This document shows, piece by piece, positions 6,686-28,770 of a DNA stretch of 64,000 nt. The notes beneath the pieces are model-generated. The model had not been told where the DNA came from, did not search any database, and saw only the letters and a list, made by a program, of their open reading frames with translations. Origin of the DNA: an uncultured Acidobacteriota bacterium (GTDB lineage: Bacteria; Acidobacteriota; Vicinamibacteria; Fen-336); the NCBI GenBank assembly GCA_963742595.1, contig CAVUMT010000001.1:3946482-4010481 (forward strand), given 5' to 3'. Numbering within the stretch: the first letter of the stretch is position 1; each line of letters begins with the position of its first letter. Made by a program: the position numbers and the translations under genes.

Positions 6686-8203
6686 GCGCCGCACCACCTC
6701 CGCCGGGCTCGCCGTCCGCTTGCGCGGAGCGTGCGGCTCGAGGGGAAGCGTGATGCGGGCGGTGGTGCCCCGGCCGGGCGCGCTCTCGAGCGCGATCGCT
6801 GCCGCCGTGGTCGGCCACGATCTTGTGGGTGAGGGCGAGGCCGAGGCCGAGCCCGGTGTCCTTGGTCGAGAAGTAGGGCTCGAAGGCGGTGCGGACCTCC
6901 TCCGTCGCTCATGCCCTTGCCCGTGTCCGTGACCTCGATGCAGAGCTCGGGCGGGCCGCCGTTCGTCGCCGCGACGGATGGAGACGGAGAGCAGGCCGCC
7001 CTCGGGCATGGCGTCGACGGCGTTGATCATCAGGTTCAGGAAGCAGGTCTTGAGCAGCTCGGGGTCGACCACCACCCGGGGCAGGTCCGGCTCCGCGTCC
7101 ACGGTCGAGCGCGATGCCCTGGTCCTGGGCCTTGTGGTCCACGAGCGAGGCGACCTCGCGCAGCGACCTCGTCCACGGCGCAGAGGCGCGGGTCGAGCCG
7201 CATCGGCTTGCCGAAGGAGAGGAAGTCGCCGACCAGCCGGTTGAGCCGGCTGATCTCGCCCTTCATCGTCTGCGAGGATGCGGTCGAAGTCGTCCCGGCG
7301 CGCGCTCTCCTCGGGGGCCATGCGCTGGCGCACGTGGTCGATCGAGAGGTTGATGAAGTTCAGCGGGTTGCGGATCTCGTGGGCCACCGCGGAGGCCAGC
7401 CGGCCCGAGGGCGGTGGAGCGCTCCGCGAAGTGCAGCCGCTCCTCGAGCCGGCGGTTCTCGCGCAGCCGCTCCACCATCTCGTTGAAGGTGCGCGAGAGG
7501 CTGGCGATCTCGTCGCCGCCGTCGAGCTTGCACCTGCACCGAGAGGTCGCCCGCGGCCACCTTGCGGGCGGCGTCCGTGAGCTCCTGGAGCGGCCGGCTG
7601 AGGGACCACGACGAGGTAGAGCGACAGCAGGATCCCCACGGCGAAGACGCCGAGGGTCGCGATGAGGCGGCTCAGGAACGCCTCGTGGGAGAGGGCCGAG
7701 AAGTCGTCGAGGGTGCGGGTGATGAGCAGCGTGCCCACGCGGCGGTCGCCCACCACGATGGGGATGGTGAGGGTGGAGCTGGTCTGGCCGGTGGCCGAGG
7801 GCGGATCGCCCAGCACGCCCCTGATCACGAACTCCGCGCCCCGGCTTCTTCTTTCGCACCAGTCGCTTACCGACGATCTTGGGGTTCGTCGAGGCCTGGA
7901 CCTCGTCCGCCGCGTCGGCGATCGTGACGTCCTTCACCCCGAGCTGCGCGGAGCTTGTCCGCGTAGGCGTTGAGGACGACCTTGGGGTCTCCTTCGCCCA
8001 CCGGCTGCTCCTGGGCGACCTCGATGGCGGTGGACAGTTCGTCCGTGTAGTCCCGAATCTGCGAGAATAGGCTGCGTTCGCTCAAGAGGTGCAGGAAGAA
8101 CAGGCTCGTGCCGGACAGCACCAGCAGCGACAGTCATCATGAGGAGCAGCTTGGTCTTGAGGTCGAGAGCGAGGAGCCCCCGCGAGAATCCGCCAGCCGG
8201 CAT
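6682..8203 (-). CDS. HAMP-domain sensor histidine kinase (multiple frameshifts)
   Basis: Two TM segments, HAMP (DEIASLSRTFNEM), H-box AHEIRNPL, N-box NLMINAVDAM, G boxes DTGKGM and GTGLGL pieced across frames. Confidence 0.85.
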
Positions 8204-16885: not shown

Positions 16886-19252
16886 ATGATCGGCGAGACC
16901 CTTTCCCACTACCGGATCCTGAGCCGGCTCGGGGGCGGCGGGATGGGGGTCGTGTACGAGGCCGAGGACGCGCGCCTGGGGCGCCGGGTGGCCCTCAAGC
17001 TCCTGCCCGACGAGACGGGAAACGACCCGCTGGCGCGGGAGCGCTTCGAGCGCGAAGCGCGCGCCGCCTCCGCGCTCAACCATCCACACATCTGCGTGAT
17101 CCACGAAATCGGCGAGGACAAGGGACACTCCTTCATCGTGATGGAGCTCCTGGAGGGCCAGACCCTGAAGTACCTGATCGGCGGCAGGCCGATGCCGACG
17201 GAGCGGGTCCTGGAGCTGGGGGCGCAGATCGCCGACGCGCTGGAGGCGGCGCACGCCAAGGGGATCGTGCATCGCGACATCAAGCCCGCGAACATATTCG
17301 TGACCGAGAGGGGCCAGGCGAAGCTCCTCGACTTCGGGCTCGCCAAGCGGACGACGAAGCGAGCGACCACGGACGCGGACGCGATAACGATGAGCCAGCC
17401 CGCGACCTTGTCGCGTGAGGGGACGGTAGTGGGGACGGTGGCGTACATGTCTCCCGAGCAGGCGCGCGGGAAGGAGCTGGACGCGCGGACGGATCTCTAT
17501 TCGTTCGGGACGGTGCTGTACGAGATGACGACGGGTGTGCGGCCCTTCTCGGGGGAGAGCACGGGGGAAGTCTTCGAGGCGATCTTCACCCGGGAGCCGG
17601 TGGCGCCCGCACTTCTCAACTTGGAGGTGCCCGGGGAGCTGGCGCGGATCATCGCCAAGGCGATGGAAAAAGACCGCGGCCTGCGCTACCAGGGCGCTTC
17701 GGACGTGCGCGCGGACCTTCAGCGATTGCAGCGGGACACGACGGCGGGAGGGAAGACCGCGGCCGCTCCTGGTCCCCGGTCTCGCCGCGCATTCTGGCTG
17801 GGCCTGGGGACGCTCGGGCTCGTGCTCGCCGTGGGAGCGGGCGCCTGGCTGGGACGGCGTCCGGAAGCCGGCTTCGGCGACCCCGGTGCCGCAGGCACCT
17901 CGTCGATCGCAATCCTGCCCTTCGCGGACATGAGCCCGGGCAAGGACCAGGAGTACCTGGCCGACGGTCTCTCCGAGGAGCTGCTGAACAGGCTTTCCAA
18001 GATCCCGAAACTGCGGGTCACGGCTCGCACCTCGGCCTTCCAATTCAAGGGCAAGAACGAGGACCCCAAGGTCATCGGGCGGAAGCTCAACGTCGCCACG
18101 CTGCTCGAGGGAAGCGTGCGCAAGGCCGGCAACCACGTGCGGATCACCGCGCAGCTCGTGAAGGTGGCGGACGGGTTCCGTCTCTGGTCGGAGACCTACG
18201 AGCGCGAGCTCACCGACATCTTCGCGGTGCAGGACGACATCGCGCGCTCCGTATCCGCCGCGCTCGAGGTCGAGCTGCTGGGGAAGGACTTGCGGCCCCT
18301 GCCCTCTCGCGGCGGAAACGTCGAGGTCTACAACCTCTATCTCCAGGGCAACTTCTTCCAGCAGCGCCGCACGAAGCAGGACATGGAGATGTCGATCGCC
18401 TACTTCGAGCGGGCGCTCAAGCTCGATGCCGGCTATGCGCCCGCATGGTTGGGTCTGGCCGGGACCCGCACGCGCCAGGCGGACAGCGTCTTCATCCCCG
18501 TGGACGAGGGCTACCGGCTCGCCCGCCGGGATGTGGAGAAGGCGCTCGCCCTGGATCCGAGCCTGGCGGATGCGCACGCGATCCTCGGCTGGATCCGGAG
18601 GACCTACGACTGGGACTGGCCGGGCGCGCATGCCGCGTTCAAGCGGGCCCTCGAGCTCGAGCCCGGAAATGCCACGGTCGTCCGGGGGGCGGCAATGATG
18701 GCCTCGCCCCTGGGCCGCTTCGAGGAAGCGCTCGCCCTGGATCGGCGCTCGGTCGAGCTCGATCCCCTGAGCGTGCGTACGCACGTCAACAGCGCCCTCC
18801 ATTCCCTGGCCCTCCGCCGGCTGGACGAGGCGGAAGCGGCCCTGCGCCGGGCGCGCGACCTCGGCCCGGACTTCCCCACTCTCCACCTCGTGACCGGCCG
18901 GATCTTCCTCGCGCGGTCGATGCCGGAGGCGGCCCTCCGGGAGATGGAGCAGGAGAAGGACCCGTTCTGGCGCCTCCAGGGAATGGCTCTCGCGTATCAC
19001 GCCTTGGGGCGGAGGAAGGAGGCGGACGCGGCCCTCGCCGAGCTGCGGGAGAAGCACGAGGCCGATACCTTCCAGATCGCCGAGGTCTACGCCTTTCGGG
19101 GCGAGGTGGACGAGGCGTTCGAATGGCTCGAGCGCGCCTACGCGCAGCGCGACGGCGGACTCGCAGACATCAAGGGGGACGAGCTGCTCGAGAGCCTCGA
19201 ATCCGACCCGCGCTACAAGGCCCTTCTGGAGAAGTTGCGTCTCCCCCTCTGA
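16886..19252 (+). CDS. Hanks-type Ser/Thr kinase + TM + TolB-like + TPR repeats
   Basis: GGGGMGVVY, VALK, HRDIKPAN, DFGLAK, GTVAYMSPEQ; TM; SIAILPFADMS..DGLSEEL; TPR C-terminus. Confidence 0.92.
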   Translation: MIGETLSHYRILSRLGGGGMGVVYEAEDARLGRRVALKLLPDETGNDPLARERFEREARAASALNHPHICVIHEIGEDKGHSFIVMELLEGQTLKYLIGGRPMPTERVLELGAQIADALEAAHAKGIVHRDIKPANIFVTERGQAKLLDFGLAKRTTKRATTDADAITMSQPATLSREGTVVGTVAYMSPEQARGKELDARTDLYSFGTVLYEMTTGVRPFSGESTGEVFEAIFTREPVAPALLNLEVPGELARIIAKAMEKDRGLRYQGASDVRADLQRLQRDTTAGGKTAAAPGPRSRRAFWLGLGTLGLVLAVGAGAWLGRRPEAGFGDPGAAGTSSIAILPFADMSPGKDQEYLADGLSEELLNRLSKIPKLRVTARTSAFQFKGKNEDPKVIGRKLNVATLLEGSVRKAGNHVRITAQLVKVADGFRLWSETYERELTDIFAVQDDIARSVSAALEVELLGKDLRPLPSRGGNVEVYNLYLQGNFFQQRRTKQDMEMSIAYFERALKLDAGYAPAWLGLAGTRTRQADSVFIPVDEGYRLARRDVEKALALDPSLADAHAILGWIRRTYDWDWPGAHAAFKRALELEPGNATVVRGAAMMASPLGRFEEALALDRRSVELDPLSVRTHVNSALHSLALRRLDEAEAALRRARDLGPDFPTLHLVTGRIFLARSMPEAALREMEQEKDPFWRLQGMALAYHALGRRKEADAALAELREKHEADTFQIAEVYAFRGEVDEAFEWLERAYAQRDGGLADIKGDELLESLESDPRYKALLEKLRLPL

Positions 19253-19284
19253 CGAGGATCGAGCCGCGGCCTAGGCGGTGAAGT

Positions 19285-19312
19285 GAAACGGGAACGCGAT
19301 GGCGTTGTCTAA
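19285..19312 (+). promoter_or_regulatory. Putative ECF-sigma promoter of the CHAT gene
   Basis: GAAAC-N17-GTCTAA; same motif and spacing at 23004-22977 and 24595-24622. Confidence 0.6.
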
Positions 19313-19360
19313 GGCACGGGACGTATCGAATTGCAGCCATGACGAGCAGGAAGAGGAGCC

Positions 19361-22100
19361 ATGGGCCGCACGCTGATGCTGCTACTCGCCGTCCTGGCGT
19401 GGAACGCCGGCGGGACAGAGCCGGCCCCGCGGCAGACCGCCGCGGCTGAAGCCCAAGCCGCCCGACGGGATCGCGGAGCGGCTGGGGGAGGCCACGAGCC
19501 TCCTCGACCGCCGTGCGCACGCGGAGGCGCTGAAGATCCTCCAGGCGCTCCTGCCTGCGGCCGAGGCGGGGAAGGACGAGGCCCTGCTGGCCGAGACCAT
19601 CCATCAGACGGCCCGGGCCTATTACTTCGGCGGCGACTACGGGACGGCTCTCCCATTGTGGGAGCGCGCCCTCGCGATGAGCGGTGCCCTGGCGAACCGG
19701 CCCCTCCAGGCCCAGATCCTTCGCCACATGGGCCGGCTTCACGAGGTGACGGGGGCCTATGCCCAGTCCCTCCGCTGCAGCGAGCAGGCGGTGGGCGATC
19801 TTCCGGGACTTGGGCGATCGCCAGGGGGCTGCCCGCGCCTTGATCGGCATCGGGGCCGCCCTCGACATGATGGGTGACCACCCGCGCGCGCTCGAGGCCT
19901 ATGAGGAAGCCTGGCCGGCGCTCGAAGAAGCGGGTGACTCGGCGTTCTACCTGCTGCTCAACGAGGTCGCCATCACCTACAAGAACCTGGGCCGCTACGA
20001 GGACGCGTTGGCGTCCTACGCGCGCTCTCGCGAATGGAGCAAAAGGACCGGCGACAAGCTCGGCGAACCGCGCACGCTCAACAACATCGGCAACGTCTAT
20101 CTCCTCCTCGGGCAATACGAGAGGGCCATCGAGCAGTACCAGGAGGGTCTGGTCCTCTCTCGGGAGATCAATGAGCGGCGCGGCGCCGTCATCCTTCTCG
20201 GCAACCTCGCGGAGGCATGGAACCGGCTCGATGACCCTCGGCGCGCCCTTGGCTATTCTCGCCAGGAGCTCCAGATCGCCCGCGAGCTGGGTCTTCGACA
20301 CTTCGAGGCCGACGCGCTTCACGGCATCGCGGAGAGCGAGGTCGCGCTCGGAGACCTGAAGGAGGGCCGGACACACTATCTGCAGGCACTGGATCTCTAC
20401 AAGGAGATAGGAGCACTCGGAGGTGAGCAGGGGACTCGCCTTGCGCTGGCGCGCCTTGACCTGCAGGAGGGTCGGCCCGTCGAGGCGCGCCTCCTCGCGG
20501 AGCAAGTCCTGACCGTCGGGTCGGAGAGCCGGGCGCCCGAGACCGACTGGCAGGCCCGCTTCGTTCTGGCCCGGGCTGCGCGAGCCAGCGGCCGATCGGA
20601 TGAGGCCGTGGCCTCGCTACGTGCCAGCCTGGGCGTGATCGACGGCCTGCGCGGGCGGCTCCTCACGGACACCGGCAAGATCGGCTACCTCGACGCGCGG
20701 CACGCGGTGTCCCACGAGCTCGTCGACCTGCTCGCCGAGAGGGGGGACGCGGCGGCATCGCTGGAGGCAGCCGAGGCCGCGCGGGGCCGGGCCTTCATCG
20801 ACCTGCTGGCGGCCCGGCAGGTCGCGCTCCGGCCCTCCGAGGCCGCGTCACTCGCCGCGATTCGTGATGGCGAGGCCCGGCTGCGCGCCCAGGAGAACGC
20901 GCAAACCGCCGCCGAAGTCCTGGTCGCGGAGCTGGTCCGGACGCGAGCCGCCACGAAGCCGAGCTGACCGGCAGGTTGCGTACGCTTCGCGAGGAGCAAC
21001 CCGAGCTGGCCAGCCTCGTCGCCGTGGAACCCCTCACCTCCAGCCAGATCGTGGAGACCGCGAAACGGTTGGACGCCACGGTGGTCGAGTACCTGGTCAC
21101 GGAGAAGCGGCTCTTCGTGTGGGTCGTGCGACCCACGGGCGAGATCGCCAGCGCCACCGTGGACATCGGCCGCGACGCGCTCCGGGAGAAGGTGCGGAGC
21201 CTGCATGTCAAGCTGGGCGGCCTCGATCTCGAGGGTCTCAGAAATCCGGGAGCCGTCCGGCGCGACCTGGCGGACCTCTACAGAGTCACGCTCGCCCCCG
21301 TGGCTCGCCACCTCCCGTCGGACCCACATGCGCTGGTCTACGTGATCCCGCACGACGCGCTCTTCCTGTTGCCGTTCGCCGCCCTCGTCGACGAGCGCGG
21401 CCGATACCTGGTGCAGACCCACACCCTCGCCTCGGCGCCGTCGCTGGGCGTCTTGCAGTACACGGCCGAGAAGAAGCGGCGGGCGATCTCTCCCGAGGCG
21501 CCCCGGCTCCTCGCCCTGGCCGATGCCCGTCCTCCCAAGGACTCGGGGTTGGGCGCATTGCCCGGCGCGCGCGCGGAGGTCCAGCGAGTGGGACGGGGAA
21601 TTCCCGTCGACCGGCGGACGATCCTGGCGGGTGCGGCGGCCACCGAGGCCAGCGTGAAGCGATTGGGACCTGGGCAGACCATCCTGCACTTCGCGGTGCA
21701 CGGCCTGATCGACGACGGCCATCCGCTCGAATCCGCGCTGGTTCTCACCGAGGGTGACGGCGAAGACGGCTGGCTTCGGGTGCGCGAGGCCTTCGGCCTC
21801 GACCTCCGGGCCGACCTCGTGGTCCTGAGCGGATGTTCGACCGGGCTGGGCAAGCTCTCGGGTGACGGCATCCTCGGCCTGTCGCGTGCCCTTCTCTACG
21901 CGGGAACGCCCTCCGTGGTCGTGAGCCAGTGGGACGTGAGCGACCTCGCCACGCTTCACCTCATGGATGGCTTCTACGCCGGCCTGCGGTCCGGACGGAG
22001 CAAGGCACTTGCCCTGCGCGATGCGCAGCTCCGGACCCTCCGCCGCTATCCTCATCCGGCACTGTGGAGCGCCTTTCTGCTCGTCGGCGAAGCGCGCTGA
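19361..22100 (+). CDS. TPR-CHAT (caspase-like) protease with hydrophobic N-terminus (frameshifts ~19470, ~19800, ~20965)
   Basis: GAGGAG RBS; MGRTLMLLLAVLAWNAGG; TPRs (TLNNIGNVY); CHAT dyad ILHFAVHG and VVLSGCSTG; SQWDVSD; HPALWSAF. Confidence 0.88.
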
Positions 22101-22120
22101 GGTGAAGCGAGTGGCCGCCG

Positions 22121-22924
22121 CTACCCCAGCTGAATTTCGGACGGGACCTCTGGATTCATCAACGACGCGCCACCATCCGCGTAGATGACTTGCCCTGTGA
22201 TCCAGCCGGCCTGCGCTGAACAAAAGAGGGTGGCAACGTTGCCGACATCCTCAGGCGTTCCCAGGCGTCCCATGGGAGTCCACCCGCGCGCGTGCCAATT
22301 CCTGATGAGATCTTGCGCGGGCTGCGGCAGCGTGTTCAATACGCTGTCCTCGGTCCATCCAGGGCTGATCGCATTCACCGTGATGCCGCGTCTGGCGAGG
22401 GTCACCGCGAAGTAGCGAACGAGAGACTCCAGCGCCGCCTTGGCTGAACCCATGCCGACCCAGGGTTGCAGTCCGCCGGTACGGCTCCCTTCTGCGTAGG
22501 TGATGGCGAGGATCCTCCCTCCTTCGCCCATGAGGGAAACCGCTTCCCGAACCCCGACGAGGAATGCCTTCGCCTGCGAATCGAACGACGCATCCCACTG
22601 TTCGAGGGTGATGTCCATCGGCGGGTAGAAGAACGCGGCGGCCTCCGGCCGCGCGTTGCTGACGAAGATGTCGAGGGTGCCGAACTCACCCTTGACCTTG
22701 CGGAACATTTGGGTGATCTGTTCTGGGCGCGATACATCGGCCTGGACCACGAAGCCGTCCACGCCAAGCTTACGCACCCGAGCAAGCGTGTCGACGGCGG
22801 CCGCCTCGTTTTGGTAGTAGTGGATCGCCACCTTGACGCCGCTCGCCGCCAGTCTCAGGGCGATTCCTCTACCAATGCCACGGGAGCTGCCGGTGACCAG
22901 CGCGTGCTTTCCGTTCAGGGACAT
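22121..22924 (-). CDS. FabI/FabL-like short-chain dehydrogenase/reductase
   Basis: TGSSRGIG, ITY, WVGMGSAKAALE, NAISPG, ITGQVIYADGG. Confidence 0.9.
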   Translation of the reverse strand: MSLNGKHALVTGSSRGIGRGIALRLAASGVKVAIHYYQNEAAAVDTLARVRKLGVDGFVVQADVSRPEQITQMFRKVKGEFGTLDIFVSNARPEAAAFFYPPMDITLEQWDASFDSQAKAFLVGVREAVSLMGEGGRILAITYAEGSRTGGLQPWVGMGSAKAALESLVRYFAVTLARRGITVNAISPGWTEDSVLNTLPQPAQDLIRNWHARGWTPMGRLGTPEDVGNVATLFCSAQAGWITGQVIYADGGASLMNPEVPSEIQLG

Positions 22925-22976
22925 GTCGACCTCCTTCGAATGCGCGCCTCTGTTTCGGCAGCTCGTGCTTCAGCGC

Positions 22977-23004
22977 TTTGACAGCGGAGGAGGCGTTCTG
23001 TTCC
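22977..23004 (-). promoter_or_regulatory. Putative ECF-sigma promoter of the SDR gene
   Basis: Minus strand GGAAC-N17-GTCAAA, upstream of a GGAGG RBS. Confidence 0.6.
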
Positions 23005-23029
23005 GCGGTGGTACGAGTACCCGCGGCGA

Positions 23030-23719
23030 TCAGGGCCTGAAGCGGTAGACCGTCCCGTCCAGGACGACCAGGACGCGTTCGCCCAGGGCGGCGTAAGGGG
23101 CGAGGGCCGGGAGGCGGGAGAGAAGGGCGGACCGCTGGTCGGGACCGTTCACCTCCGTGATCGGCAGGCCGGCCGCCGCGTCGAAGCTGACATCGGTCCA
23201 CTCGCCGGCCGCGAGGCGAAACGTCTTGCCGGCGACCCGCCGGCCTGCCCCCCGCGTGACCAGGAGTCCCGGGTCGAGCGGGTCGACGCGCGGCATTGCG
23301 GCCCCCGGTGAGCTCGCCGGTGACGGCGCCATCTCGCTCGGCGGGGGCGGAGGGGAGATCGAAGCGCCTGGTGGCGTGGGGGACGGCCGGGTTTCTTCTT
23401 CGGGAGTGCCAACCCAGTTCAACCGGGTGACCGTGGCCACCGCGAAGACCAGGGCTGCCGCTGCCGCGAGCGGTAGCCAGCGGTGCAATGCGAAGCCGGG
23501 CCGTACTACAGGCATCGGCCGCGGGATCAGGCCGTTCTGGGCTGCGCGGGCGAGGAGGGCCAGGGCCTCGCGACACTCGGCGCATCCGACCAGGTGCGCG
23601 TTCAGGACCTCTCGCTCCCGGGGGTCCAATCGGCCCTCCAGGGATGCCGCCAGAAGGCCCGGGTCGTGGGGACTGCTCAAGGTCGCCTCCGGTTCATCCC
23701 GTGTCTTAGACGGTCTCAT
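23030..23719 (-). CDS. zf-HC2 membrane anti-sigma factor
   Basis: HLVGCAEC (HxxxCxxC), one TM (WLPLAAAAALVFAVATV), Pro-rich linker, C-terminal domain; ATGA overlap with the sigma gene. Confidence 0.8.
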   Translation of the reverse strand: MRPSKTRDEPEATLSSPHDPGLLAASLEGRLDPREREVLNAHLVGCAECREALALLARAAQNGLIPRPMPVVRPGFALHRWLPLAAAAALVFAVATVTRLNWVGTPEEETRPSPTPPGASISPPPPPSEMAPSPASSPGAAMPRVDPLDPGLLVTRGAGRRVAGKTFRLAAGEWTDVSFDAAAGLPITEVNGPDQRSALLSRLPALAPYAALGERVLVVLDGTVYRFRP

Positions 23720-24546
23720 CGTGCTTCCGTTCCGCCGTCGCGCGCCCCCAGAATGGTCCCGAGATCCAGTTGGAGGCGGCGCAGGTCCATGCCGGAGCGC
23801 AGCGTCTCCGCCGAGACCCCGGTTCGGCTCCGGGCCAGGGAATCGATGGAGACGCGCAACTGCTCACGCGCCCGCTTCAACCTGCGGCTGAGGCCGGCCT
23901 TCGAACCGCCCACGGCGATCACCATCTCGTCGAGGGTGAGGTCTTGCTCGTAATGGAGGAGGATGAGCAGCTTGTCCTCCGCGGACAGGCCCTCCATCGC
24001 CTCGCGTACCAGGCCTTCGAAGAGCGATCGGTCTTCGGTGGCGACCACATCCGGCGAGCTTCCCGAGCGTTCCTGCCGCCGCGGACCGGGTCCTTCGCCC
24101 TCCAGCGGCAGCCACCGGCGATCGGCCTTGACCGCGTTGAGGGCCGCGTGGGCGACGATGGCGCCGAGCCACGTCCGGAGCGTGCTCCGCCCTTCGTAGC
24201 GCGCCATCTTCTTCCGCTCCCACAGGTCGGCGACCACCTGGTCGGCGACGTCGCTCGCGGCAGGCTCCCGGAGGAACCGGCGCGCGAAACCCCGGACGAA
24301 GTCGCCGTGGCGGGCCAGGCACTCTTCCCAGGCCCTCTCCTCGCCCTGGGCGCACGCGCTGGCGAGATAGAGGTCGTCCAGGCTGAGCCTGCGGACGTGC
24401 TCGTCGGGCGTCCGATCGGCAGACGCGGCAAGGGCCAGCTCGACCAGCCGCTCCGTGAAGGTCGATGCGTCCAGTGCGAAGCGGACGTGCACCTGCGACG
24501 CGACGAGGGCGAGAACGCGCTCGCGCTGCCCCTGTCGTGTTTGCAT
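23716..24546 (-). CDS. ECF-type RNA polymerase sigma-70 factor with N-terminal extension
   Basis: DLYLASAC..AWEE; region 2 DVADQVVADLW..RYEGRSTLRTWL; region 4 LLILLHYEQDLTLDEM..LSRRLKRAR. Confidence 0.85.
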   Translation of the reverse strand: MQTRQGQRERVLALVASQVHVRFALDASTFTERLVELALAASADRTPDEHVRRLSLDDLYLASACAQGEERAWEECLARHGDFVRGFARRFLREPAASDVADQVVADLWERKKMARYEGRSTLRTWLGAIVAHAALNAVKADRRWLPLEGEGPGPRRQERSGSSPDVVATEDRSLFEGLVREAMEGLSAEDKLLILLHYEQDLTLDEMVIAVGGSKAGLSRRLKRAREQLRVSIDSLARSRTGVSAETLRSGMDLRRLQLDLGTILGARDGGTEAR

Positions 24547-24594
24547 GACCCTCCCGCGCGAAGCATCCGGCGGAAGCACGGCTGCGTCAAGGCT

Positions 24595-24622
24595 GGAACA
24601 GATCTCCACGCGCATTGTCCAA
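24595..24622 (+). promoter_or_regulatory. Putative ECF-sigma promoter of the delta-60 protein gene
   Basis: GGAAC-N17-GTCCAA; AAAGGAG RBS at 24661-24667. Confidence 0.6.
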
Positions 24623-24674
24623 CCGGTGAAGCACCCCTCTTGCGCAGCCTCGTAGCGCGAAAAGGAGTACGTCA

Positions 24675-27600
24675 ATGCGGCTTAGTCCGTCGTCGGCGAT
24701 TCGCTGCCACCTCCGGCGCTCTGCCCTCTTCGTGCGTGGCGTGGCTCCTGGCATGGCGCTGCTGTCCTGTTTGATCGTGGCCCAACCCCTGGCCGCCGCC
24801 GACGGGGACCTCGACCCGACCTTCGGCATCGGAGGGAAGGTCATCGGCGAGAACAATGAGGGTGTTGGGACGGACAGTATTGCCATTCAGCCCGACGGCA
24901 AGATACTCATCGCGGGACGACGAGGAGTCCAGCTCGTTCGCTACAACGTGGATGGCAGCCGGGATCTGGGCTTTGGTGATGGCGGTACCGCTTCGGGGTT
25001 CGGGTTGGTCGCCCTCCAGCCGGACGGAAGGATCGTGACGGCCGGAAGCGTCGGCGTCGGTTTCCTTGTGGACATGGCGCTCAGGCGCCACAACGCCGAC
25101 GGCAGCCTGGATCCGACGTTCGGCAGCGGAGGCGAGGTCATCGATGACTGGGGGGTGGGAGGTGGCGACTCCCCCGCGAGTCTCGCTCTGCTGCCTGACG
25201 GCAGGATCCTCGTGGGGGGGACGGCCTTCAACATCCCTCCCGGCGGCGACAGCGCGGTGGTTCTGGCACGCTATCTTCCCGACGGAAGCCCGGACCCGAG
25301 CTTCGGGAGCAACGGAAGGGTCGTCGTCGACAGAGTCGGCACCAATGGTGCGGCGGCCAGGGCGTTCGCTCTCCAAACCGACGGCAAGGCCGTCGCGTTA
25401 TGGTTTGGCCTCACGTCATATCACCTCGGGCGTTACATGCCCGACGGCTCGCGCGACCCAAGCTTTGGCAGCGGCGGCGTGGTGGTCCTCAGCGACCACA
25501 CCCTGAACGATGTTGCCATCCAAGCGGACGGGAAGATCCTCGTCGGGGGATCGGTCCCTAACTCCCTGGGTTACTCCGATTTCCGCGTAAGGCGGCACAA
25601 CGCGGACGGCAGCCCGGACCTGGGCTTTGGCACGGGCGGCCATGTGACCACCGACTTCGAATCGGGCGACGACGTGGTGCGAGCCCTCGCCGTGCAGGCG
25701 GACGGGCGCATCCTTGCGGTGGGGTCTGCCCAGGGAGATGACCAAAACATCTTCAATCCCGCCTTTGCCCTCGCGCGCTACGAGATGGACGGCGCGCTGG
25801 ATTCGAGCTTCGGCACGAACGGGCGGGTGAGGACGGCATTCGATCTGGGGGGCGTCGCTTGCGGCAGCGACCGGGCCAATGCCGTCGCGCTCCAGGCCGA
25901 TGGCAAGATCATCGCCGGCGGGGTGACCTCCAATACTTCTACCGGAGAGTGCAACGAGGGCTCGCCGGCCCTCGCCCGTTATCTCAGCCTGGGCGTCCCC
26001 GATACCGATGGCGACGGCGTGCCGGATGCCACCGACAACTGTATTGAGGCGATGAACCCCGGCCAGGGGGACGCCGACGGGGACGGCATCGGGGACGTCT
26101 GCGATCCCGACACCGACGAGAGCGTGAGCGACGTTGTCGCAGCGGGCAGCACTCGCACGACGGACGCCGAGGGGGATGGCGCGACGCTGGCCGACCCGAT
26201 CGAGACCACCGTGACGAGCCCCAACGCGGGCATCCTGACCATCGCCGAGATGCCGGCCTCCTTCCCGCCGCCGGCCGGCTTCCAGCTCCTCGGCTGGCAG
26301 GTCGTGATCACCGCCCCGACAGCCTCGGCCGCGGCCCCTCTCCGGATCGTCTTCCAGCTCGACGCCTCGATCCTCCCGCCGGGCACCTTTCAACCCCAGA
26401 ACGTGATCCAGGTGTTCCGCAACGGAACCCAGGTCCCGGCGTGCTCTGGCGCTCCGGGGACGGCCGCGCCCGATCCCTGCGTCGCCAGTCGGTCGCTGAT
26501 AGCGGGCGACGTCAGGCTCGAGATCCTGACATCCACGGCCAGTACCTGGAACTTCGGAGTCTCCGAGGGGGAGGCCCCGACCGTGCCTGGCGTGCCGGCG
26601 CTGTCCGCGGGTCCCAATCCGAATCGGGGCGTCTTCAGCCTGTCCTGGACGTCGTCGACCGACACGCAGGGCGATCCCATCCTGTACTTCCTCCGGCACC
26701 GAGACAGCGACGATGCCGATTTCAGCGACGCCGTGAACGCCCTGGCGTCGAACACCCATACGTTTGCCGACCCCTTGCCGGAACAGGAAGGGACGTGGCT
26801 CTACCGGGTGAAGGCATCGGACGGGACATTCGAGAGCGACTACTCGGCGGCCTCCGCGCCGATCAAGGTCGACAGGACGGCGCCGGCCCCGCCGTCCGTG
26901 ACCGCGGACCGGCCGCCCGACTTCCCCGGGAATGGCGGGTGGTACCGGGACTCCGTGAGCCTCAGCTTCAGCTCGGGCCCGGATCCGATCCTGGGAGACG
27001 GGAGCGCGGGCAGCGGCATCGATCTGGCATCCCTCCCCGCGCCGGCCACGGTCGTGACCAGCGGCTCGACCACGGTGGAAGGCACCGTGAAGGACCTCGC
27101 GGGCAACGAGTCGGCCTCGGCCGGGCTCGCGGTGCAGGTGGACGCGACGTCGCCGTCGCTCGCGATCACATGCCCGTCGGCTCCGGTCCCGGTGGGCGCC
27201 GCGGCCAGCGCCGCCTGGACGGCCGGCGACGCCGAGTCAGGGCTGGGCACTCCCGCTTCAGGGAGCGTGCCCCTCGACACCAGCAGCGCCGGCCAGAAGA
27301 CCGCTATCGCGCCGGCGGCCCTCGACAACGTCGGCCACACCCGCAGCGCCTCCTGCACGTACTCGGTCGTGGGCGGTGCAACGTACGACTTCCGAGGTTT
27401 CTTCCCGCCCGTGGCCAACTTTCCGGCCCTGAACCGCGTGGCCGCGGGATGGATCGTTACCCTTCGTTTCAGCCTGGGTGGTAACAGGGGTCTCGGGATT
27501 TTCCCCGCCGGATATCCAAGGGTAGGGGAGATCGCCTGTGGGTCCACCGAGCCCGTGGAAGGGACCGGTGCCGCCTGTGGGTCACCTGTTCTACGTGCGC

Positions 27601-27729
27601 ATCCTCGATCAGTACATCTACCTGTGGCGGACCGACCACCGGTGGGCCGGGACCTGCCGTCAGATCGTGGTCAAGCTGGACGACGGCACCGAGCACCGCG
27701 CGAACTTCAAGTTCCTGAGAAGCCATTGA
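24675..27729 (+). CDS. Large secreted protein: delta-60 repeats + TSP type-3 repeats + Ig/FN3-like + C-terminal PxKF-like domain (frameshift ~27570)
   Basis: Repeated LDPTFG.GG / ALQPDGKI; DTDGDGVPDATDNC..DADGDGIGDVCD; YDFRGFFPPV..RFSL; shifted frame ends YIYLWRTD..CRQIVVKLDDGTEHRANFKF. Confidence 0.8.
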
Positions 27730-27750
27730 GCACTGATCAAGGGTGCTCTT

Positions 27751-28770
27751 TCATCGAAGCGCTGACGACGCCCCGATCTCGAGGTCGTACCGGACCTCCT
27801 CGCCGGGGCCGAGCCGGCGCAGGCGGCCTTCGGCTTCGAGAACGCGCCGGGGCGCCTCCCAGTTCGTGCCCGGCTCGAGGGCGCAGACGTAGTCGGCGGT
27901 GGCGAGCCGCTTCCACTGCGTGAGGCAGGGAAGCTCCGCCGCGCGCCAGGAGAGGAAGGCTCCGAAGCCGCTCGCGCGGTTGGCGATTCCGACGCGCACG
28001 CGGCCGTCCGGATCGGGCGGGGGATCGTGGAAGAAGACCTCCCCGGGGGCATCGGGACGCGGGGCCTCGAAGCGGCGGTGACCGGCGAGGCCGGCGGCCG
28101 CCGTGTCGTCGCGCGGGCGGACCTTGCCCGTGTCTCCCACGAGCTCCGACTCGGGGCTCACCACCGGAAACCCGAGGTTGCAGTGGTAGAGCATCATGTG
28201 GGGGGCCGGCGTCGAGCCTTCGTTCCGCACGCAGTCCTCGATGAGCAGGCTGTCCGCCCCCAGCCGCGTCGTGATCCGCCGCTCGAGCCGAAGGCCCTCG
28301 CCGGGGCCCGTCCTCTCGACCGCCTCGCCCGAGATCTCCAGCACGTAGTCGTCCCCGCGCCACTCCTGGACCACGCGCACCGCCTCCGCGCGGACGTGGG
28401 AGATGCGGCCGTGCAGGCCGTGTCCTTCCTCGGGCTGGCCGAAGTGGGTGAGGCCGCAGGTCGTGACGAGTCCGCCTCCGAAGGTCTTCAGCCACCCGTA
28501 ACCCTCGGGGTCGTACCGTTCGGGCCCGCCGAGGTTCGGGTGGATCCACGCGAGGGCACGCCCCGCGTGCTCCGCCGCGCCCACGTCGAGCGCGCGGTCG
28601 AGGAGGACCTGGAATCGCAGCCCGCTTCCCGTCCAGACGTCGGCGACGCGCAGGCCCGAGCCGTGGCCCTCGTGGAGGGTCATGAGCCGGACTCCCGCGA
28701 GCTGCGCGAGATACCCGGCGCGCTCGCGCAGCTCGCGGGAGGACCAGTGCCGTCCGAAGAGGAAGGGCAT
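27751..28770 (-). CDS. DUF4432 / aldose 1-epimerase-like protein
   Basis: FQVLLDRALDV, GGLVTTCGL, LHGRIS, MLYHCNLG, LPCLTQWK, YVCALEPG. Confidence 0.75.
   Translation of the reverse strand: MPFLFGRHWSSRELRERAGYLAQLAGVRLMTLHEGHGSGLRVADVWTGSGLRFQVLLDRALDVGAAEHAGRALAWIHPNLGGPERYDPEGYGWLKTFGGGLVTTCGLTHFGQPEEGHGLHGRISHVRAEAVRVVQEWRGDDYVLEISGEAVERTGPGEGLRLERRITTRLGADSLLIEDCVRNEGSTPAPHMMLYHCNLGFPVVSPESELVGDTGKVRPRDDTAAAGLAGHRRFEAPRPDAPGEVFFHDPPPDPDGRVRVGIANRASGFGAFLSWRAAELPCLTQWKRLATADYVCALEPGTNWEAPRRVLEAEGRLRRLGPGEEVRYDLEIGASSALR

Follow-up and report, generated by a model that had tools for sequence, protein, structure and literature searches.

In Escherichia coli, the sigmaE consensus consists of GGAACTT and (T/C)GGTCAAAA (PMC1312014; PMC6648896), and a second sigmaE promoter located directly upstream of rseA sets up negative feedback (PMC1312014). 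DdvA of Myxococcus xanthus, the partner of the sigma factor DdvS, has been called the only characterised anti-sigma factor with a TPR-CHAT-type domain, and in a ddvA deletion strain the expression of DdvS is driven by its own promoter (PMC11506125). Groups of extracytoplasmic function (ECF) sigma factors that are not autoregulated also exist, ECF32 being an example (PMC7826278). Here we describe an ECF sigma gene and the repeats around it in a 64,000-nt stretch of DNA (the window) from an uncultured Acidobacteriota bacterium (GenBank assembly GCA_963742595.1, contig CAVUMT010000001.1, positions 3,946,482 to 4,010,481). Four boxes of the form GGAAC-N17-GTCNAA lie at this locus and are, with high probability, promoters recognised by the encoded sigma factor; one of them is located inside the sigma gene itself and faces the anti-sigma gene.

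Four copies of a bipartite motif at an ECF sigma gene

The sigma gene and the boxes, numbered by their position in the window, are as follows.

24546-23716, minus strand: gene of an ECF sigma factor of 276 amino acids (Pfam Sigma70_r2 and r4_2; TIGR02937)
19285-19312, plus strand: box 1, GAAAC-N17-GTCTAA, predicted ECF promoter of a TPR-CHAT gene whose ATG (19361) lies 48 nt downstream
23004-22977, minus strand: box 2, GGAAC-N17-GTCAAA, predicted ECF promoter in the intergenic region between the anti-sigma gene and a short-chain dehydrogenase/reductase (SDR) gene, with the SDR ATG (22924) 52 nt downstream
23733-23706, minus strand: box 3, GGAAC-N17-GTCTAA, located within the sigma gene at its 3′-end, predicted ECF promoter for the anti-sigma factor
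24595-24622, plus strand: box 4, GGAAC-N17-GTCCAA, predicted ECF promoter of a delta-60/TSP3 (thrombospondin-3) gene whose ATG (24675) lies 52 nt downstream

An initial annotation of the window had counted three copies, boxes 1, 2 and 4. Both direct reading of the sequence and an exact pattern search find all three at these positions, and the string TGRAAC-N15-TTGTCYAA is, as that annotation stated, common to the two plus-strand copies; a fourth exact copy, box 3, had been overlooked.

An exact search for GRAAC-N17-GTCNAA gave four matches in the window, where 0.09 would be expected; in 100 dinucleotide shuffles that number was never reached. The genome scan that the initial annotation had proposed was run over the whole 6.8-Mb genome (70% G+C) and returned 29 matches, 22 of which carry GTCGAA, a hexamer that reads as a pair of favoured codons. 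The variable position holds a base other than G in 7 of the 29, and four of these seven are the boxes in the window. Given the genome's own background rate, the Poisson probability of finding at least four within 5338 bp is 6e-9. This enrichment is specific to the 17-nt spacer: genome-wide, spacers of 14–16 and 18–20 nt yielded 0–4 matches each, compared with 7 for 17 nt.

The geometry of the boxes is that of ECF promoters, with a bipartite AAC (–35) and GTC (–10) structure, a fixed spacer and an orientation towards a nearby start codon. All four face a start codon with a Shine-Dalgarno sequence 25–52 nt downstream, the shortest distance (25 nt) being that from box 3 to the in-frame TTG of the anti-sigma gene at 23680. 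Boxes 1 and 3 resemble each other beyond the motif: when each is taken with 11 nt downstream (19285-19323 and 23733-23695), 29 of 39 positions are identical (GTCTAAg.cacggga.g). The extent of this identity, which includes the downstream bases, suggests that the CHAT promoter arose by local duplication of the promoter at the end of the sigma gene.

Genome-wide ranking of the boxes

Modelling of the motif on orthologous sites had also been proposed by the initial annotation. A weight matrix was trained on 12 boxes, all taken from loci whose sigma identity does not exceed 66% and none from the window. Among 13.6 million genome positions, this independent matrix placed the window boxes at ranks 1, 2, 4 and 6 (box 2 first and box 1 second). 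A combined matrix, with the consensus GGAAC-RGAA-N11-(c)T-GTC-N-AA, picked boxes at the expected places in L113–L116 and L024, all of which are outside its training set.

The other top-ranking sites in the genome are mostly GTCGAA within coding sequence, so the regulon of this sigma factor appears to be essentially local. Two intergenic GGAAC-N17-GTC(C/G)AA sites outside the window, C1:4100545-4100572 and C1:48231-48258 (both plus strand), are located 82 and 205 nt upstream of long open reading frames of 599 and 719 amino acids, respectively. Both were examined as further regulon members and set aside, as they are intergenic but have no support from conservation; they are possible additional members or targets of other ECF sigma factors.

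Box 3 is conserved at the 3′-end of the sigma gene

We compared 22 distinct loci of the sigma family, with sigma identities of 42–91% (the window, G012, L022–L029, L102, L104–L110 and L113–L116; L111 shares the sigma gene of L110 and was not counted separately). In every one of them the sigma gene carries the –10 half at its 3′-end, as GTCNAA in 21 and as ATCTAA in one. A GNAAN –35 element is located exactly 17 nt upstream of this half in 19 of the 22 loci, whatever the reading frame or the position of the stop codon.

In 17 loci the sigma gene uses the TAA of the box as its stop codon, which explains why many homologues end in ...ER-x5-V, often as ...ERKPGGAV. The remaining five (the window, L022, L024, L026 and L029) have their stop elsewhere and nevertheless keep the box. 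Retention of the box where frame and stop differ points to a constraint that acts on DNA rather than on protein. In L102, a relative with 90% identity, the sigma gene ends at the TAA of the box, and the anti-sigma gene is called from the same TTG as that at 23680 in the window.

Box 3 of the window spans both the sigma stop codon and the anti-sigma start ATG (23719). Compared with four relatives, the sigma tail of the window contains one extra base, while box 3 itself is unchanged; this base shifts the frame and produces the ATGA overlap with the anti-sigma ATG. Another ATG, located 8 nt past box 3 (GGGATG), serves as anti-sigma start in the clade with 60–66% identity, where the mRNA would have almost no leader. 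The same ATG is out of frame in the window and opens a mini-ORF (open reading frame) of 7 codons (23697-23675), the TGA of which overlaps the in-frame TTG at 23680.

Boxes precede neighbouring genes in related loci

Beside orthologous and distantly related sigma genes, boxes are conserved at equivalent positions, both in the 3′-terminal part of the sigma gene and in front of its neighbours (G012, L023–L029 including L024, L102, L104–L107, L108–L110 and L113–L116). The genes downstream of the further boxes mostly encode secreted beta-propeller or surface proteins. The gene following the anti-sigma gene is preceded by a box in L102, L108, L109, L106 and L116. Across the window, L102, L108 and L109, box 2 is the sole conserved island of its intergenic region, the rest of which is unalignable, and the downstream gene differs.

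Box 4 is kept before the delta-60 ortholog in L109 and L110. In L102 (9860-10000), the divergent box is degenerate (GTCCAG) and the start of the delta-60 gene (AAGGAG...ATG) can still be recognised, with no long gene called; the target gene appears to have been lost there. A gene for an SLH-domain protein located after CHAT carries a box in G012, L104, L113 and L114. Boxes also precede a Peptidase_S74 gene, an NHL-repeat gene and, in L115, the small gene that heads a CHAT-sigma-anti-sigma operon.

A different conserved element lies upstream of the sigma gene

The initial annotation saw no copy of the motif driving the sigma gene and found this unusual for an ECF factor. The first part holds: upstream of the gene on the same strand the best matrix score is 8.6, compared with 20–30 for the four boxes. 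The puzzle is partly removed by box 3, since the operon does contain a box of this type, located in the sigma 3′-end and reading into the anti-sigma gene. In the place of a box, another element precedes the sigma gene.

24590-24562, minus strand: TTGACG-N17-GATGCT, candidate housekeeping-like promoter of the sigma gene

This block is present in 10 loci (61–100% sigma identity), 12–20 nt before the sigma start and between flanks that cannot be aligned. Its TTGACG –35 element stands back to back with box 4, 4 bp from the GGAAC. It agrees with the housekeeping promoter at 5 of 6 positions in the –35 and 3 of 6 in the –10 element; the low agreement of the latter explains why it was not reported by a sigma-70 promoter and terminator scan of 19100-24900, which called nothing in this interval. 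It was not found as a repeated motif in the genome. On balance we favour, with some reserve, a promoter that is independent of the sigma factor, and use ‘housekeeping-like’ as a tentative label.

The arrangement is different in the clade with about 50% identity, where CHAT overlaps the sigma start to form a CHAT-sigma-anti-sigma operon. Since an ECF-type box is located upstream of this operon in L115, positive autoregulation may exist in some relatives.

Proposed regulation and alternative explanations

We propose that the sigma gene is transcribed from its conserved TTGACG-N17-GATGCT promoter and that the co-encoded ZAS anti-sigma factor would keep the protein at the membrane. Upon release, sigma4 would bind GGAAC and sigma2 would bind (T)GTCNAA 17 nt downstream, with transcription expected to start about 6–8 nt past the box. 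Firing of box 3, in the last codons of the sigma gene, would lead to synthesis of the anti-sigma factor and hence to negative feedback; the other induced units would be the SDR, the TPR-CHAT protease and the delta-60/TSP3 surface beta-propeller protein. With no box of this type before the sigma gene, the circuit is predicted to have negative feedback without positive autoregulation. The initial annotation had read the repeats as ECF promoters of the AAC/GTC form, a view now strengthened by their fixed spacer, their orientation, their clustering at the sigma gene and their recurrence in relatives.

Several points weigh against the assignment of the boxes to this particular sigma factor. Three distant loci (L022, L106 and L107) have no recognisable –35 half at the end of the sigma gene, box 1 was not found before CHAT in the closest relatives L102 and L111, and orthologous sites of close relatives are non-independent observations. 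The GGAAC...GTC form is, moreover, generic and sigmaE-like, and the genome encodes at least 10 ECF paralogues. One of them (C5:902226-902798) is preceded by GGAAC-N18-GTCCAA at C5:902915-902887 (minus strand), 22 nt before its ATG, a site that looks like a classic autoregulatory ECF promoter one spacer base off the window motif. Given the generic motif and this N18 box, another sigma factor could read the window boxes or cross-talk with them. The boxes might be real ECF-type promoters read mainly by a paralogue, the adjacent sigma factor being a target or a bystander. We consider this improbable, as over 20 loci, drawn from unrelated metagenomes and differing in their neighbouring genes, combine N17 boxes with this sigma family, one of the boxes is embedded in the sigma gene itself, and almost no good N17 sites are found in the genome outside the locus.

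Explanations in which the repeats are not promoters fare worse. Sites of a DNA-binding regulator, or remnants of duplicated DNA, would account for the agreement of boxes 1 and 3 in the spacer and downstream bases; across distant loci, however, conservation is confined to the two half-sites and leaves most of the spacer free, each copy has a direction and faces a nearby start codon, and the half-sites equal known –35 and –10 elements of an ECF sigma factor, which leaves such an origin very improbable. The coincidence of the box with the last sigma codons and TAA stop, seen in 17 of 22 loci, and the recurrent ...ERKPGGAV ending, could also mean that the box at the sigma end is nothing but a conserved C-terminal peptide (...ER-x5-V-stop), with the other three copies due to chance. 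This is scarcely credible: the DNA box persists in the five loci with a different frame or stop, non-coding DNA contains this bipartite motif too, on either strand, and a probability of about 6e-9 excludes chance. Recognition of the four boxes by the adjacent sigma factor is thus the explanation that we retain.

The sigma family and the genes around it

The sigma protein scores 59.8 bits against TIGR02937 (cutoff 42.9), which places it in the ECF (group IV) family. Its Sigma70_r2 match is above the Pfam cutoff (25.8; cutoff 24), and that to r4_2 is just under it (22.9; cutoff 25.7). TIGR03001 (Myxococcales family 1 sigma-70) is the best-matching subfamily model and covers sigma residues 37-263, including part of an N-terminal extension, with a score of 78.3 bits that falls short of the cutoff of 154.6; judged by its sequence, the protein is a member of a related but distinct family. 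The extension of about 55 amino acids (24546-24380, residues 1-55) is common to the whole family and has the consensus ...R..L.LVA..VR.RFALDA..FADRL..., in which R22 and F23 do not vary among 44 sequences.

More than 260 homologues of similar length were found, nearly all of them metagenomic. Among 40 close relatives only one, G012, has an ortholog, and scanning genome contigs for the sigma protein brought up no relative. When 401 genomes of the phylum were searched with the family alignment and 6 candidates were scored in each, the window's own genome alone was recovered. A metagenome scan returned 80 loci, 8 of which are true family loci; the remainder, unrelated ECF sigma factors with at most 31% identity, were set aside.

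The following genes adjoin the sigma gene or are predicted targets of the boxes.

23719-23030, minus strand: zf-HC2 (ZAS) single-pass anti-sigma factor (PF13490, 29.4 against a cutoff of 22.2), the ATG of which overlaps the sigma stop (ATGA)
22924-22121, minus strand: SDR (Pfam adh_short_C2, E 3e-57), predicted target of box 2
19361-22100, plus strand: secreted TPR-CHAT protease gene (Pfam TPR_12 and CHAT), with a signal-peptide-like N terminus
24675-27923, plus strand: secreted delta-60 (DUF5122) beta-propeller/thrombospondin-3 repeat protein (DUF5122, TSP_3; TIGR02608, E 4e-82), divergent from the sigma gene
16886-19252, plus strand: Ser/Thr kinase-TPR gene upstream of CHAT, ending 33 nt before box 1

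The anti-sigma protein has an Hx3Cx2C motif and a single hydrophobic segment, approximately residues 82-100; its periplasmic tail comprises some 80 amino acids. Its alternative in-frame start, the TTG at 23680, has GGAGG 5 nt upstream. The anti-sigma gene is the next gene after sigma in all relatives examined. The SDR gene that follows is possibly also reached by read-through from box 3; nothing resembling a terminator was called in this region.

A TPR-CHAT gene adjoins or lies near the sigma-anti-sigma pair in 11 of 13 loci with enough flanking sequence (the window, L021, L102, L104, L106, L107, L111 and L113–L116) and is absent in L108 and L109. The order is sigma-anti-sigma-CHAT in the 60–66% clade and CHAT-sigma-anti-sigma, with an ATGA overlap, in the clade with about 50% identity. 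The CHAT His and Cys motifs can be read in the window (HFAVHG and LSGCSTG), leaving the predicted dyad intact, and the gene falls into at least 4 frame segments by tblastn against the intact L111 homologue. These segments are 73–83% identical to that intact homologue of 907 amino acids and have no stops inside them. A solved-structure search with the intact CHAT homologue returned TPR matches only and no CHAT structure.

The delta-60/TSP3 protein has a hydrophobic N terminus; its C-terminal tail is rich in Arg and seems to be read in the wrong frame. Because the genome is estimated to be 57% complete though it is in six contigs, and in view of the CHAT frameshifts and the extra base in the sigma tail, we suspect indel errors of the long-read assembly as the likely source of these frameshifts, of the extra base and of the delta-60 tail.

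Two features were observed in L106. A pair formed by an ECF gene (PF07638) and a kinase-TPR gene lies close to the module, and the region upstream of the CHAT-sigma operon (7130-7270) is dense in direct and inverted TAATCCC/GGGATTA repeats.

Comparison with known systems

Constant linkage to a secreted TPR-CHAT protein suggests a proteolytic trigger related to that of DdvA, and it is plausible that TPR-CHAT cleaves the periplasmic part of the anti-sigma factor. We offer as a tentative proposal, one that we hold less probable than its negation, that the loci represent a widespread and undescribed module. It would combine an N-extended sigma factor, a short ZAS anti-sigma factor and a TPR-CHAT caspase-like protease, secreted as a separate protein and acting as the site-1 protease of the anti-sigma factor, as in a split DdvA. 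The sole cognate promoter of its operon would lie in the last codons and stop of the sigma gene (GTC TAA being the –10 element), provide negative feedback only and constrain the C-terminal tail of the protein.

The sigma family is uncharacterised and known almost only from metagenomes. Our analysis provides a testable promoter model, GGAAC-RGAA-N11-(c)T-GTCNAA, together with a complete small regulon. This wiring would escape automatic ECF motif finders, which presuppose autoregulation and examine the region upstream of the sigma gene. A regulon of ECF promoters is in itself of an ordinary, known kind; it is the layout of the circuit that is instructive.

The promoter form is near-identical to that of E. 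coli sigmaE, with GGAAC at –35 and (T)GTCNAA at –10. The modal sigmaE spacer between GGAACTT and TCAAA is 16 nt; if this value holds, the spacing from GGAAC to TCNAA is the same 18 nt in both. As in rpoE-rseABC, a promoter predicted to depend on the sigma factor is located directly before the anti-sigma gene. In E. coli, rpoE itself is preceded by a sigmaE promoter as well, which gives positive autoregulation, whereas a different conserved element takes this place here. The two sigma proteins have marginal similarity (RpoE, 1OR7; E 4.5e-4), and RpoE-type NCBIfam models score far below their cutoffs; by these scores the sigma factor is not a member of the RpoE group (ECF02). The partner is RseA in E. 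coli and a ZAS anti-sigma factor here, RseB and RseC are lacking, and the sigma factor is N-extended.

With DdvS/DdvA of M. xanthus the locus shares an ECF sigma factor, a zinc-binding N-terminal anti-sigma domain, a single transmembrane helix, a TPR-CHAT domain outside the cytoplasm and a small set of local sigma-dependent promoters, the last being predicted here (PMC11506125). We found no usable published consensus for DdvS promoters in the literature, and the ECF reclassification paper with its supplements (PMC7826278) yielded nothing usable on groups associated with CHAT. DdvA fuses the anti-sigma and periplasmic TPR-CHAT parts, whereas these are separate genes in every locus described here; what is linked to the sigma-anti-sigma pair is a TPR-CHAT protein with a His/Cys dyad, a predicted protease, and not an anti-sigma/TPR-CHAT fusion in one polypeptide. 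The anti-sigma factor is also short (about 210–230 amino acids), unlike DdvA, and CBASS/CRISPR genes are not near the locus. ECF32-type groups likewise lack a cognate promoter upstream of the sigma gene. Unlike in those groups, the predicted cognate promoter here is located inside the operon, where it would drive only the anti-sigma gene.

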